Shown: positions 12,322-29,173 of the stretch, one piece after another | Layout: each line of letters opens with the position of its first letter | How positions within the stretch are numbered: position 1 is the stretch's first letter | Virus record (IMG/VR): IMGVR_UViG_3300037484_000235 | Location: 32,001-96,000 of that record | Length of the DNA: 64,000 nt | DNA from: a virus | Taxonomy: Duplodnaviria; Caudoviricetes | Direction: 5' to 3' (one strand) | The notes under the pieces: generated by a model | The model's input: the letters and a program-made list of their open reading frames with translations, nothing else | Databases searched by the model: none | What the model was told of the DNA's origin: nothing | Position numbers and translations under genes: made by a program

Positions 12322-12855
12322 ATGACTGACGCCGATGACCGATCCACAAATGACGACCTGACTGATGACTACGACCCCAACGACTTAGGGGATCTCCAGT
12401 GTGGTATGATTTCATCCACAAGATCAGCGGTGTGTATTCTGAATCCTGGACATGGGGGTATGCACCGTGTCTTTTCCGTTACAACCCACAGTTTTGGACC
12501 CAGGAAGCCTATCCCATTTCCGGATCTGGAAAACATTAACCCAGGAATCCGAGAGACAGTCAGGCTCCTAAATCAGAATGGCTTCCGGACTACAGATAGT
12601 GGTGACGGAAAGACAGGTGACTATTCGTGTGACCGTCCCTACCCATACGTGTCGATTGCTTCAACCCGTGCGGGGTTGATCCAGGATGCAGACGACATCG
12701 CCTTTCTGTTCTCTGAGCACGGTGTTCAAGTCGGAGAACTCACCGAAGAGGGTGAAGGCCCCTACATCCAGGCGATGTACACCCCTCAGGTAAAAAACTG
12801 CGCAATCATCGACATTCAGAATGTCGATGACAAGCTGTTGGGGCTCGTACCCTAA
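12322..12855 (+). CDS. hypothetical protein
   Basis: 177 aa; GF.T.DSGDG motif. Confidence 0.65.
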   Translation: MTDADDRSTNDDLTDDYDPNDLGDLQCGMISSTRSAVCILNPGHGGMHRVFSVTTHSFGPRKPIPFPDLENINPGIRETVRLLNQNGFRTTDSGDGKTGDYSCDRPYPYVSIASTRAGLIQDADDIAFLFSEHGVQVGELTEEGEGPYIQAMYTPQVKNCAIIDIQNVDDKLLGLVP

Positions 12856-14459
12856 CCCTTGGTGACGTGCCCATCGTAGAAGTGGAAGAAGACCGGGACC
12901 CTCTCGATCCCCAGCTCCGCCGCAATGGCCAGTCGATGATTCCCTTCACCAACCTTGACTCCGCCTTTACGACCGATTTGGAGGTGCACGGTGCTCCCCT
13001 TCTTCCATCCTCGGCTGTTCATACTGTCCATCAGCTCGTCCCATTCATGTGGTTCCAGACGAGCCTTGTCCCGAGTCCAAACGTACTCCCTGTAGGGTAG
13101 TAGCTCAGACAGACGGACCATCACGGGCATGTCGTCCTCGTACATCTTGTCCCCGAGCTTTTGCCAGTTCGCAATCACGTCTCCCAGGCCCGTGTAGTTG
13201 GAGTAGTACCCAGCGGTACGACCACCATGTGTAACAGTGCCCAACGCCGCCCGCACGGCGTCCTGCAAACGGTCTGGTTGGAAGGCGAGCATTGGTGTGC
13301 TCAGCATCGCCTCGCGAGCTAGAGGGGCCAGTGCGCCCCGGTCTCGGCCCTGTAGGTTGAACTCTGTGATGAGGGCCGTGTTGTCGATCGGTGGCTTCTT
13401 GAGCTTCTCGAAGAACTCGTCAGCCTCATCGCTGATCATCCCCGTGGTGATTTCCCGGAGTCTGACTTGTTGAGGCTTCGTCAGGAAAGCTACGGGCTGC
13501 GACCCAAGCCCAAGGTCTGCCAGATCCAGAAGCAACGCCACCGCACGGTTCCCGTTGCTGAACTGCTTTGCCATGTACGAGGCAAACGGAGCCTCACTTT
13601 GGATCATTTCCGAGAGGGTCTCGATCAGGCCCAGGTGAGCCATTGTGAGAAGGGCCCCACGTGCATTAGGGGTGTCCAGAATGTCTTGCACCAAGATCGT
13701 GGCAATCGCCTCCCATGGCATCTTCTTCATCTTGGGGGCGTTACGCCGGACACTGGCCGCAACCTCATCGGTCAGATCAAGCTCGTACTTGATCGAGAAT
13801 TTAATCAGTCTGAGCATACGTGTTGGATCGTCGGAGAATGTTCGGTCCGGATCCAACGGTGTGTGGAGCATTCGCTCTTCGAGGTGCTGCACGCCAAGAC
13901 CCGTAAGGTCGATGACTTCTGCGTAGTCAGGTCCGTTTGCTAGGTCGAGCAGTCTCCAGAGCAGAGAATTGAGCGTGAAGTCGCGTCGATTTATATCCTC
14001 TTCGATGGTGGCTGGTTGGACATCGGTGGGCTTGTAGCCTTTTCCTTTCCCTTCGGCTCCACCGTAGGACTCTTTGCGCGCATTCGCGATTTCCAGAATT
14101 TCACCCTTCAGCGAGTGGCCCTCAAGTTCCCATTCTCCCTTAATTGTCAGTATGACAACCCCATACTGATTGGTTGTGAGATTCGTTGGGGCTGGGATAG
14201 CCTTGGCCAGTTGATTTGCAAACCACTCTGAGTTCTTGCCGAGCGCGATGGAATCTACGACGACGTCCAAATCATTGATTGGGTACTTGGATCCACCAGG
14301 GTCCATCATGAAGTTACGCACGGCCCCACCAACCACGTAAACGTGACTAGCCACACCCAATTCGATTGCTGTGCGAGACAAGAACTTCATCAGCGCCACT
14401 GAGCGTGCATGCGACCCAGCGTTGAGAAAGCGAGTTGCGACTTGAGATGCTTGATCCAT
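12852..14459 (-). CDS. cca: class II tRNA nucleotidyltransferase/poly(A) polymerase (CCA-adding type) fused to C-terminal ParB/sulfiredoxin-like domain
   Basis: VVGGAVR, DLDVVV, RKESY, EDINRRDFTLNSL, FSDDPTRMLR; C-term GEGNHRL..A..LG...VPV; no HD domain seen. Confidence 0.88.
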   Translation of the reverse strand: MDQASQVATRFLNAGSHARSVALMKFLSRTAIELGVASHVYVVGGAVRNFMMDPGGSKYPINDLDVVVDSIALGKNSEWFANQLAKAIPAPTNLTTNQYGVVILTIKGEWELEGHSLKGEILEIANARKESYGGAEGKGKGYKPTDVQPATIEEDINRRDFTLNSLLWRLLDLANGPDYAEVIDLTGLGVQHLEERMLHTPLDPDRTFSDDPTRMLRLIKFSIKYELDLTDEVAASVRRNAPKMKKMPWEAIATILVQDILDTPNARGALLTMAHLGLIETLSEMIQSEAPFASYMAKQFSNGNRAVALLLDLADLGLGSQPVAFLTKPQQVRLREITTGMISDEADEFFEKLKKPPIDNTALITEFNLQGRDRGALAPLAREAMLSTPMLAFQPDRLQDAVRAALGTVTHGGRTAGYYSNYTGLGDVIANWQKLGDKMYEDDMPVMVRLSELLPYREYVWTRDKARLEPHEWDELMDSMNSRGWKKGSTVHLQIGRKGGVKVGEGNHRLAIAAELGIERVPVFFHFYDGHVTKG

Positions 14460-14495
14460 GAGGGCTCCACCCAATGCAGAAAATAGACGGCTTCG

Positions 14496-14687: not shown

Positions 14688-14926
14688 GGACCCATCCCCA
14701 CAAAGGAATTAGGCCCGTCCACAATGGCTTCGGTCTCTCTTCCTGTTGGGCTTAGCAGACGGAGACGGACACACAGTCGACCCCACCAAGGATGCTTTTC
14801 TTCCGCCGAGAGAATCTTGTAGGGCACTAGGATCATTTTGAAATCCGGTGGGTACCACTCTGGCATGTCTAGGGTCTTACCTACCACATAGCGTCTAGAT
14901 GGGGTGTCCCTGTATGGATGGGTCAT
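14684..14926 (-). CDS. hypothetical protein
   Basis: 80 aa coupled ORF. Confidence 0.55.
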   Translation of the reverse strand: MTHPYRDTPSRRYVVGKTLDMPEWYPPDFKMILVPYKILSAEEKHPWWGRLCVRLRLLSPTGRETEAIVDGPNSFVGMGP

Positions 14927-14934
14927 ACGAGGGA

Positions 14935-15261
14935 CTATTCTGGAGTGTCAATCGACCGATATTCCACAGGTCGGCCTTTGGACTCAGCACGCTCAATACC
15001 GAACCTCATCCCACGTGAGATGCCACGGTCTGTGTAGACGACCGTGGCATCCGCTTTCAATCCCCACGCAAGACCCGCTTCGATACCCCTGGTGCGCTCT
15101 TCCAGAATGAGGTCATCAAGGACGCCATCCTGTGTGTAGAGCAGGTGGCTTGCAAAGGGGGCCTCACCACGTAGAAGGGAATCTCGCATGCACCGTCGTG
15201 CATAGAGCTTGTTCGCCTCTACGTCACCTGCAAATGGACTCTCAAGGATGACGAGTCTCAT
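14935..15261 (-). CDS. conserved phage protein (deoxyribosyltransferase-like fold, uncharacterised)
   Basis: VILESPFAG, ARR, GEAPFASHLLY, GISxGM..G motifs. Confidence 0.65.
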   Translation of the reverse strand: MRLVILESPFAGDVEANKLYARRCMRDSLLRGEAPFASHLLYTQDGVLDDLILEERTRGIEAGLAWGLKADATVVYTDRGISRGMRFGIERAESKGRPVEYRSIDTPE

Positions 15262-26906: not shown

Positions 26907-26936
26907 AACGGGTCAGCCCCCAGGGATTACACGATT
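26907..26936 (-). promoter_or_regulatory. repeated promoter AATCGTGTAA-N16-CGTT
   Basis: motif read directly. Confidence 0.85.
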
Positions 26937-27516: not shown

Positions 27517-27884
27517 GCGGGGGTCTTTCGGTCTTGAGCGTGCTGGAAGGCTGTCTCAGGGCTTGCCTGCTCCAAAAGGTTGTTCCATGCCTCAGCAGCG
27601 ACCCTTGCCCTCTTGTTCGCCTCGAACGCAAGAGAACGCAGTCGCAAGTAAGCCGCATGCGCTTCTCGCAAACGAACGAGCATCTCAGCGTCGCACTCAC
27701 GCTTGTACTCAGTAGCTGCGCCCAAGGCGTCCTCAACCGTGGGACGGGCCCCACCCCGTTCATTGGCCGCAGCCGCAGCCTGGAACCCTGCCAGGACGTC
27801 TGGGTGGTCACTGGGGGGTACGTATCCGAACGAGACCCAGACCTTCCAGCCGGTGATAAACGCGGCGCGTTGGCAGGTGTTCAC
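27513..27884 (-). CDS. hypothetical protein
   Basis: 123 aa coupled. Confidence 0.6.
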   Translation of the reverse strand: MNTCQRAAFITGWKVWVSFGYVPPSDHPDVLAGFQAAAAANERGGARPTVEDALGAATEYKRECDAEMLVRLREAHAAYLRLRSLAFEANKRARVAAEAWNNLLEQASPETAFQHAQDRKTPA

Positions 27885-28114
27885 GACTCGCTCCCCGGGC
27901 CCCAGCGGTGGTCACAGGCGCAGCACCGGAACTCCTGGCGTGAGCCCTGGCACCCGTTGTCCTCAGTGTCCTTGCACCCGCAAGAGGGGCACTCGGAGCC
28001 CTCAGCTTGGCGCACAGACTTTGCGAGTGATCGGAGCTGGATCTGACGCTCCAGGTCCGTGAAGGGAGCAAGCAGGATACCGAGAGTGATTTGATCGATG
28101 GTCTTGGGGGTCAT
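27881..28114 (-). CDS. Zn-ribbon protein
   Basis: CPSCG..EDNG..FRCCACDHRW. Confidence 0.6.
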   Translation of the reverse strand: MTPKTIDQITLGILLAPFTDLERQIQLRSLAKSVRQAEGSECPSCGCKDTEDNGCQGSRQEFRCCACDHRWGPGSES

Positions 28115-28305
28115 GGGGCCTCCGGATGAAATGTGAGGTTGCTTGGACCAGCGTAATAGCCACTCTTGTATGCCTGCACCGCGTACCCACGCTCGTAACC
28201 AATGAGTCGGTCCGTAGGCCAGCCGTGCTCTACGGCCCAAGTTCGCGCCGCAACGAGCGTTGGCCAGTAGTAAATGCCGCGATGCGTCTTTAGCGTGTCG
28301 TCCAT
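28111..28305 (-). CDS. hypothetical protein
   Basis: AGGAG RBS, MDDTLKT. Confidence 0.65.
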   Translation of the reverse strand: MDDTLKTHRGIYYWPTLVAARTWAVEHGWPTDRLIGYERGYAVQAYKSGYYAGPSNLTFHPEAP

Positions 28306-28317
28306 AGTTCTCCTGAG

Positions 28318-28413
28318 TGGCGCTACATCACACACGCGGTGAGCCATGATCCCAAGGGTCGCCCTTGCTGGCCCTGGGTAGCGCCGTTCCTAGCGGTTCG
28401 TGTGCGGTGTAGC
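28318..28413 (-). ncRNA. candidate CCA-ended structured RNA (acceptor-like helix)
   Basis: GCUACA/UGUAGC + C.A + CGCACACG/CGUGUGUG, then G-CCA; internal hairpins; directly downstream of a promoter. Confidence 0.5.
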
Positions 28414-28428
28414 GTCTCTCACCTAGGT

Positions 28429-28458
28429 AACGGTTGAGCCCACCAGGATTACACGATT
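28429..28458 (-). promoter_or_regulatory. repeated promoter AATCGTGTAA-N16-CGTT (no ATG follows)
   Basis: motif read directly. Confidence 0.85.
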
Positions 28459-28463
28459 ACAGG

Positions 28464-28757
28464 CTATCGATCGTAGAACCTCGCGTTTGGGTTCTCACGA
28501 AGGAAATCACCAAGTTCTTTGATCTGCTCCTCAACCCACTCGGGTTTGCCCTCGAAAACTGCTGTGTTCCAGGGCTGCTTGACCCAATCCGGTTCTGGCC
28601 AAAGATTGCGAAGCCACTCACAGTAGGCTGCGTAGCGGGCCTGAGTCGTCGTGTGGGAGAGGATGCGGTAAGTCACCTCTGTAGGTGTCTGCGCCAAGCC
28701 CATCGTCTTGCGATGCTTGCCATGTGCGCCGTTATCGACCCCCAGATTCATACTCAT
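28464..28757 (-). CDS. hypothetical protein
   Basis: 97 aa; L.QTPT..T..IL motif. Confidence 0.65.
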   Translation of the reverse strand: MSMNLGVDNGAHGKHRKTMGLAQTPTEVTYRILSHTTTQARYAAYCEWLRNLWPEPDWVKQPWNTAVFEGKPEWVEEQIKELGDFLRENPNARFYDR

Positions 28758-28964: not shown

Positions 28965-28994
28965 AACGGTCGGGGACCAGAGGATTACATGATT
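28965..28994 (-). promoter_or_regulatory. promoter variant AATCATGTAA-N16-CGTT
   Basis: motif read directly. Confidence 0.8.
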
Positions 28995-29002
28995 CAGGAC
29001 CA

Positions 29003-29156
29003 AATCCACTCCTACAAGCTGCCCTCGACCCCAGCTCCACCCCCGGCCTAGGATGGGGGCTTCTTTGACTGGTAGGTTAGGTCGTGATTGCAATCACACC
29101 TACTGCGGCTTTTGCATGCCGGAGCCCATTTCGAGAGCAGCTTGTAGAAGTGGATT
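29003..29156 (-). ncRNA. candidate structured RNA: 26-bp terminal stem enclosing a multibranch core
   Basis: arms 29003-29028 and 29131-29156 are reverse complements at 24/26; both mismatches become G.U on the minus strand. Confidence 0.55.
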
Positions 29157-29173
29157 CTTAGCGCTGAGGGACC

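Follow-up and report, generated by a model that had tools for sequence, protein, structure and literature searches.

A strongly folded stretch in the genome of a huge uncultured phage (28318-28413, minus strand), placed between a promoter and the ribosome-binding site of a small orphan gene, is most likely a built-in mRNA leader and not a separate tRNA-like gene. Its function is best explained, with a probability that we put at about 45%, as that of a cis-acting 5' leader that buries its own 5' end together with an orphan SD-like sequence, for stabilisation and/or double-strand-specific processing. Such a leader is favoured over a released acceptor mimic by the position of the stem in the modelled fold, by an orphan SD that is buried while the real one stays open, and by the difference from the true CCA-ended RNAs of the phage.

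Genomic setting and promoter family

The DNA analysed here (64,000 nt, hereafter the window) corresponds to 32001-96000 of an IMG/VR phage record that is 252.5 kb long and whose completeness is estimated at 57%. The whole record carries 46 tRNA genes and one tmRNA, with a YrlA-type Y RNA (59 bits) located within the tRNA array, and encodes a nucleotidyltransferase of the CCA-adding type (PF01743; window 12852-14474). From 18 to 36 kb, the window is a series of small minus-strand genes without PHROG or Pfam matches. Downstream of the element come a good SD, an ATG (28305-28303) and a 64-codon ORF (28111-28305, minus strand), which is translationally coupled to the next ORF (27881-28114), its stop overlapping the ATG of the latter (ATGA). 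The only match of this 64-codon ORF among 5.8 billion protein clusters is itself; it has no match in PHROG and its product belongs to no recognisable RNA-binding family. On the other side, a 97-codon ORF (28464-28757, minus strand) is the sole flanking gene with relatives, i.e. two homologues showing 65-67% identity and further remote ones that are weak. Metagenome runs from four studies (freshwater, wetland, groundwater and one without a label) yielded short DNA contigs at least 99% identical to 28029-28439, and the phage species therefore occurs in at least three sample types.

The promoter located ahead of the element (28427-28458, minus strand), already proposed in an initial annotation of this DNA, is real, being one of 38 copies of a family present in the 252-kb record. 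It consists of AATCGTGTAAT (28458-28448), a 15-nt spacer and CGTTAC (28432-28427), followed by CTA and then by GGTGAGAGA. This matches the family form ATCGTGTAAT-N15-CGTTAC-N3-GGTGAGG, the consensus of the whole family being ATCGTGTAA(T), N13-18, CGTTA(C), N3, GGTGAGG. Nearly all the copies are found between 7.8 and 113 kb of the genome and each is aimed at the next gene; examples are located at window positions 26935, 28457, 28993, 29757, 60490 and 60516, the copies of the window spanning 1174-60516. The two-box organisation presumably resembles that of ECF-sigma promoters (TGTAAC-N17-CGAC type). The record also carries, at genome 140462-140614 (plus strand; L028), an open frame of 206 codons that matches Sigma70 region 4 (ECF-type, PF08281; 33 bits), and the search for sigma region 2 gave no match in the whole record.

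In 28 of the 38 copies, GGTGAGG itself is the SD and the start codon lies 6-11 nt further on (counting any ATG or GTG that opens at least 30 codons and lies at most 30 nt from CGTTA). As the initial annotation had noticed, the promoter at 28427-28458 is followed by no ATG at the usual distance after GGTGAGAGA (28415-28423, minus strand), which lies mostly inside the terminal stem. Indeed, no ATG, GTG, TTG or near-cognate codon is found 13-17 nt from the first G of this orphan SD-like sequence, and the first good SD followed by an ATG is reached 122 nt after CGTTA. It is supported that this promoter drives a non-coding, strongly folded stretch ahead of a ribosome-binding site and an ORF. As 28 promoter copies lead straight into an SD and an ATG, the extra 100 nt are therefore an insertion-like exception within an mRNA leader.

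The other promoters devoid of a direct start codon include those of the tRNA array (genome 102284), of two tRNA-like units (window 60490 and genome 113084), of a T-arm-like hairpin unit (genome 101811) and of a 54-nt leader (genome 110333). Of the five further promoters of the family that drive non-coding RNA, four lead to tRNAs or tRNA-like RNAs whose CCA is encoded, and the prior for a tRNA-related product is therefore raised. The layout shared with the 60.4-kb element, pointed out initially, is borne out: the distance from CGTTA to ATG is 123 nt there and 122 nt here, and both units have the same promoter family, an orphan SD-like sequence, an RNA of about 90 nt, a CCA, an SD and an ORF. 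However, the T-arm of the 60.4-kb RNA is canonical (AGGG-UUCAAUU-CCCU) and its ACCA is free, whereas the present element has neither feature, and the likeness of their sequences is limited to a chance 7-mer. The GCAAGGG that had been taken as a link between both does not hold, as 44% of the shuffled versions of the present element also have a 7-mer in common with the 60.4-kb one.

Several of these exceptional units deserve a brief description. Behind the promoter at genome 110333-110390, GUGAGGA is included in a 7-bp hairpin (GUUGAGU...AUUCAAC) that begins directly after CGTTA, and a second SD, AAAGGAAAGG, is found with an ATG 54 nt downstream; this layout is a smaller form of a buried module SD followed by a second SD. 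At genome 113084-113290 (window coordinate about 81084, hence outside the window), the family promoter is intact as far as the site where the ATG would stand (GGTGAGGAAAGAACATC) and is followed by an RNA of about 165 nt with a tRNA-like start GGGGAUU, a D-arm GCAC-AAUGGUA-GUGC, a large insert, a T-arm GUGGG-UUCGAGU-CCCAC and ACCA. ARAGORN makes no call for this RNA, and the Rfam scores obtained nearby, for tRNA-Sec and tmRNA, are weak. At genome 101811-101960, also outside the window, a promoter copy precedes a non-coding T-arm-like hairpin (GCGGG-UCGAAUC-CCCGC) located about 400 nt ahead of the tRNA array.

The terminal stem and the inner rod

The minus strand from 28413 to 28318 reads GCUACA-C-CGCACACG ... 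CGUGUGUG-A-UGUAGC-GCCA, and RNAfold pairs its arms (28413-28399 and 28336-28322) with a probability of about 0.99. The initial annotation had described a 14-bp helix with a GCCA tail; its arms are real, whereas the free GCCA end does not stand, since these bases are predicted to pair with the leader. Pairing extends outward with C28414-G28321, G28416-C28319 and GAGU (28418-28421) facing ACUC (28314-28317), and GCCACUCA forms six Watson-Crick pairs out of eight with the leader UGAGAGAC. GCCA (28321-28318) therefore lies inside a 23-position stem, with 19 predicted pairs. The 5' arm of this stem (28399-28421, minus strand) is UGAG-A-G-A-CGCUACA-C-CGCACACG, the unpaired probability of its paired positions being close to 0, and its 3' arm (28314-28336, minus strand) is CGUGUGUG-A-UGUAGCG-C-C-A-CUCA. 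The limits of the stem are 28421, six bases past CGTTAC, and 28314, the first A of AGGAGA. This A forms the last stem pair and the remainder of the functional SD (AGGAGA; 28309-28314, minus strand) is predicted to be open, the unpaired probability of GGAGAA being about 0.9 in a 134-nt fold.

The 109-nt fold (28421-28313) reaches -48.3 kcal/mol with a z-score of -3.81, none of 200 shuffles being as good, and its minimum-energy and centroid structures are identical. The check proposed initially, a shuffled-sequence z-score obtained with RNAfold, gave -2.58 for the 96-nt core, so that the flanks contribute structure. Helices of this quality (at least 14 pairs in 15 positions, 13 or more of them Watson-Crick, span of 30-150 nt) number 11 and 16 on the two strands and 4-13 in Markov shuffles, i.e. 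a chance rate of about 8 per strand per 252 kb. Such a helix is thus not rare at the scale of the genome; calculated from this genome-wide shuffle rate, the number expected in one particular 110-nt gap is about 3e-4.

The wobble pair had been said to favour the minus strand; this argument fails. The minus strand carries a G9.U84 wobble and a C7.A86 mismatch, the two being exchanged on the plus strand, and the folding energies are -43.0 for the plus strand and -42.1 for the minus strand. As wobble and mismatch mirror each other between strands, they give no sign of selection at the RNA level, and the minus-strand assignment is based only on the orientation of the genes and of the promoter. An intrinsic terminator or attenuator, which requires a GC-rich hairpin and then a U-run, was also considered and rejected: the stem has no U-run, GGAGAACUAUG comes next, and no terminator-like site was found on the minus strand between 27500 and 29500.

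The inner part (28337-28398, minus strand) is predicted to continue the stem as one irregular rod including, in order, a 12-nt internal loop (AACCGCUAGGAA), CGG/CCG, GCUA/UGGC, a bulge AUCA and, at the tip, CCCAGGG/CCUUGGG closed by a 14-nt apical loop (CCAGCAAGGGCGAC). The pair probabilities of this inner rod are 0.7-0.9, and the best fold accounts for 23-45% of the ensemble and is equal to the centroid. The inner hairpins drawn in the initial annotation (CCG-CUAGGAA-CGG, GGGCCA/UGGCUC and AAGGG-CGA-CCCUU) have to be abandoned: their fold reaches -35.4 versus -42.1 kcal/mol for the best fold, i.e. it is 6.7 kcal/mol worse, with an ensemble probability of about 1e-5. The sole natural variant, an A>G change of the plus strand at 28355 (U59C on the RNA), replaces G40.U59 by a G-C pair in the best fold and would disrupt A49-U59 of the proposed hairpin; it comes from a single low-depth groundwater contig and is therefore weak evidence for either fold. 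The covering contigs (at least 99% identical) are too similar for covariation to be read from them.

The same variant is synonymous in the ACG frame (UUG to CUG), as would be expected if the stretch encoded a small peptide, either from a 30-codon frame starting at this ACG or as a 78-codon extension of the 64-codon ORF from the ATG at 28347. Both frames are open, but the ACG lies 2 nt past GGTGAG, versus 6-11 nt for the real starts of the module, the ATG at 28347 lacks an SD and is located within the rod, and AGGAGA-ACT-ATG at 28305 is the obvious start. Such a peptide is hardly credible.

A responsive cis-regulator, riboswitch-like or protein-binding, is distinctly improbable, but less so than the peptide. 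Its loops, namely AACCGCUAGGAA, the bulge AUCA and the apical loop of 14 nt, would recognise a ligand or a protein of phage or host origin, with a resulting change in downstream translation or stability. The position and size of the element are typical of cis-regulating leaders, it directly adjoins the SD, and its unpaired loops are predicted to be large and well defined on a stable scaffold. However, no Rfam family matches at E<=10, no homologue displays conserved loops, the downstream protein is an orphan from no recognisable RNA-binding family, and no alternative fold hiding the SD is evident, the best fold with its 23-45% of the ensemble being the centroid.

The CCA end and comparison with tRNA-type RNAs

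The initial statement that the element is not a tRNA and has no T-loop is confirmed. The characteristics of a tRNA or tRNA-like RNA (Rfam RF00005 clan), i.e. a cloverleaf, a T-arm with its T-loop, a D-arm and a 7-bp acceptor stem, were recognised in the element neither by ARAGORN, which finds no tRNA in the window, nor by cmscan, which yields no tRNA, tmRNA or tRNA-Sec match at E<=10 in 28280-28460. The same tools detect 46 tRNAs elsewhere in the genome. More broadly, an Rfam search of the whole window at gathering thresholds gives no match, and the only match at E<=10 in 28280-28460 is a meaningless lncRNA one (E 3.1).

Other RNA families were tried and rejected. YrlA (RF02553), the partner of the Ro60 of the phage, is defined by a terminal stem, handle loops AUGC ... 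CUUG and an enclosed tRNA-like module; there is no RF02553 match at E<=10 and the handle motifs of the Y RNAs of the array are absent from the stem. The small SRP RNA (4.5S, RF00169), a rod-like hairpin with the domain IV motif and a GNRA tetraloop, has no match at E<=10 in the whole record. The element and E. coli 4.5S RNA (NC_000913 ffs) have the blocks ACGCUAC, CGCGUGUG and GAUGUAGC in common, but 215 of 5000 shuffles reach the same alignment score (p about 0.04), several unrelated windows of the phage genome outscore the element against ffs, and the shared blocks pair with different partners in 4.5S RNA than in the element.

The CCA itself requires more attention. As 37 of the 46 phage tRNAs encode N-CCA, the motif is meaningful in this genome. 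A tRNA-type substrate of RNase P and CCA-adding enzymes carries a single-stranded 3' RCCA beside the acceptor helix, an unpaired leader and usually a U at position -1. In the element, the predicted fold pairs GCCA, the base at -1 is C and six of the eight leader-trailer positions form Watson-Crick pairs (eight leader bases versus the eight bases from N73 onward). The 37 CCA-bearing tRNAs have 0-5 such pairs out of eight (median 2) and the 60.4-kb RNA has 1, and U closes most of the 37 tRNA leaders. The element as modelled therefore does not look like a substrate of this type, and the acceptor-like helix with GCCA described initially is not supported as a functional tRNA-type 3' end, GCCA being predicted to pair with the leader in the primary transcript.

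A discrete RNA of about 95 nt could still be released by an RNase P cut before G28413 and trimming to GCCA. The resulting T-loop-less minihelix could engage the CCA-adding enzyme, or decoy host factors that attack tRNA 3' ends. Bacterial RNase P recognises a 3' RCCA and also cuts RNAs other than tRNAs, phage RNAs among them (PMC4919922), and leader-trailer pairing can aid RNase P at a tRNA-like structure in the eukaryotic MALAT1 (PMC8457004). This release keeps some probability because the other non-coding units of the family are tRNA-related and because RNase P accepts non-tRNAs bearing RCCA. It would also be consistent with the CCA encoded by 37 of 46 tRNAs and by the tRNA-like RNAs of the phage, with the helix-G-CCA in the exact tRNA register, with a leader length close to that of the 60.4-kb unit (122 versus 123 nt) and with the CCA-adding-type nucleotidyltransferase of the phage. 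Several features make it quite unlikely, however. The GCCA is predicted to be paired, the six leader-trailer pairs out of eight exceed those of all 37 CCA-bearing tRNAs, and the C at -1 pairs with the 'discriminator' G; T-loop, D-arm and elbow are all lacking, and the tRNA, tmRNA and YrlA models give no score even at E<=10; a CCA at one fixed position is found by chance in about 1.8% of cases; and the analogous leader of a relative described below (L008) has no terminal CCA. The pre-4.5S RNA, the P1/P7 C4 precursor (PMC4919922) and acceptor minihelices do display, like the element, a helix followed by a purine and CCA; unlike these RCCA substrates and minihelices, the element has an RCCA predicted to be paired with the leader, a C at N(-1) and no T-loop.

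It is still more doubtful that a free, CCA-tailed and T-loop-less rod would be an 'acceptor-end mimic' of a new kind, belonging with the 60.4-kb RNA and the Y RNAs to a set of non-decoding tRNA-related RNAs that these huge phages put behind early promoters. RNAs of this sort could occupy, or serve as decoys for, enzymes that act on tRNA 3' ends (host toxins, RNase P or CCA-adding enzymes). If a discrete CCA-ended RNA were released, it would represent a new, T-loop-less type among the many tRNA mimics of this phage and would be relevant to the conflicts between phages and hosts over tRNA. A helix followed by CCA is nevertheless insufficient for a tRNA-like label, and a tempting over-reading is thereby corrected.

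Relatives and comparison with known leaders

Blastn searches of the phage collection and of the E. coli genomes with the element gave no match. As no homologue was found in the collections searched, there is no covariation to examine. Within the phage genome, no second copy exists and paralogy ends at the promoter. One homologue of the 97-codon ORF (L009) lies on a contig that stops at that gene, and the remote homologues have short downstream gaps. The other close homologue is carried by a 2-kb Logan contig (L008), from a related phage, where its stop is followed by a promoter of the same type (AAGCGTGTAAG-N15-CGTTAC) and by a non-coding leader of about 260 nt (L008:385-645), in which a stem of about 21 bp with an A.C mismatch closes three hairpins (z -2.3). 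This leader does not align with the present one beyond the promoter and ends without CCA. It also contains a start-stop mini-frame (AGGAAAGAAGGCACACC-AUG-UAA) and two similar hairpins (GAAGGACC-GGGGG...).

Among large relatives, the closest is G001 (199 kb), which encodes an AAA_5 protein with 76% identity to that of the phage; its synteny with the window ends at about 31.2 kb, and the element is absent from its whole 199-kb record. Its promoter variant is AATCGTG[A/T]AA-N17-CGCTTAG-N3-GGTGAGG. At orthologous divergent promoters (window 60490 and G001 60542), an 89-nt tRNA-shaped RNA is found here and a direct ATG in G001. Matching promoters of L008 and G001 are thus followed by different or missing RNAs, so that the RNA 'cargo' varies between relatives.

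Another folded module is found close to the element. At window 29002-29157 (minus strand), a 27-bp stem closes a multi-branched element of about 155 nt (z -6.4) that adjoins the promoter at 28993 on its upstream side; both non-Watson-Crick pairs of this stem are U.G on the minus strand. Its counterpart in G001 (L017, about 14770-14945) lies directly behind a promoter and includes a T-arm-like hairpin GCUGG-UUCGAUU-CCAGC. The stem pattern of this 29.1-kb module is found only in G001 among viral contigs, the 11 matches in metagenome contigs being unrelated.

The absence of the element from G001, with a site that differs among relatives, would also fit a non-functional relic at the DNA level, i.e. 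a palindrome-ended piece that landed between the SD and the ATG of the module. This origin, as a dead miniature inverted-repeat element or as a recombination scar at the promoter cassette, tolerated thanks to the second SD, is possible but unlikely. The inverted repeat is equally good on either strand, excising 28414-28310 restores GGTGAGAGA-ACT-ATG with the normal spacing of the module, GAGA is present on both sides of the insert, and the divergent promoter pair at 60.5 kb also varies in RNA 'cargo' between relatives. However, two SD sequences would share GAGA anyway, the limits of the stem coincide exactly with the expected RNA start and the SD, unlike those of a random scar, the inner 62 nt fold too (z improving to -3.8), and no further copy was found in the genome, in 185,579 species genomes or in JGI metagenome contigs.

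A miniature inverted-repeat mobile element of the Correia/nemis-like type, recognised by dispersed copies, conserved terminal inverted repeats and a target-site duplication, was rejected as such: the element is present in a single genomic copy, its terminal-repeat pattern has no match in the 185,579 species genomes or the JGI metagenome contigs, and the flanking GAGA is ambiguous as a target duplication. Correia/nemis-type elements located in 5' UTRs are, like the present element, short, bounded by inverted repeats and able to form a long mRNA hairpin, but the present element is single-copy and without clear target duplication.

The preferred reading is that an early or middle phage mRNA carries the element as a structured 5' leader. 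Transcription would start a few bases past CGTTAC, around the G/U of GGUGAGAGA; the stem begins six bases past CGTTAC, which is the inferred start for an ECF-type promoter. As this start is placed by analogy, an RNA beginning further downstream would lose the outermost pairs. The first 109 nt or so of the transcript would fold into one irregular rod, whose 23-position stem would pair the 5' end, including the useless SD of the module, with the sequence up to AGGAGA, leaving the real SD (28314-28309) and the ATG at 28305 single-stranded. Parallels are the L008 leader behind its promoter of the same type and the promoter at genome 110333, with its GUGAGGA in a hairpin and its second SD. The paired 5' terminus would hinder 5'-end-dependent decay, as 5'-terminal stem-loops do in E. 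coli (protection by 5'-terminal base pairing is reviewed in PMC3997798), and the long near-perfect duplex may be cut by a double-strand-specific RNase of the RNase III type. Either action would determine how stable the message of the 64-codon gene and its coupled genes is and how well it is translated. A search of the 57%-complete fragment for a phage RNase III gene found none.

With chances a little below even, the element would thus be a new member, without relatives, of a familiar class of features, the structured mRNA leaders. If this is right, the device is ordinary (a structured 5' UTR) and the genome is unusual, and the main value of the observation lies in a phage group that reuses one promoter-SD cassette and places different RNA 'cargo' behind it.

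Two kinds of known systems can be compared with such a leader. Emory, Bouvet and Belasco reportedly described in 1992 the 5'-terminal stabilising stem-loops of the ompA and papA leaders. A stabiliser of this kind, as found in bacterial and phage mRNAs, is defined by a helix that begins about 0-4 nt from the 5' end of the RNA and by a longer mRNA half-life. The ompA/papA-type stem-loops are located in the leader, at or near the RNA 5' end, and leave the SD free, as predicted here. However, the present element is far larger (109 nt, with a 23-position stem and an inner rod) and its RNA start is inferred, and there is no sequence relation between them.

The T7 early region and the lambda N leader carry processing sites of RNase III. 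These sites and the present element have in common an imperfect long duplex located in an early phage transcript between promoter and gene, where a cut would remodel the 5' end of the mRNA. An RNase III site is expected to offer about two turns (about 20 bp) of mostly uninterrupted duplex and to be cleaved, and the element has 19 pairs in 23 positions. Each T7 site is one hairpin of about 50-60 nt that contains a characteristic internal loop, whereas here the duplex closes a longer irregular rod that, with its bulges and its 12-nt internal loop, is no textbook RNase III site.
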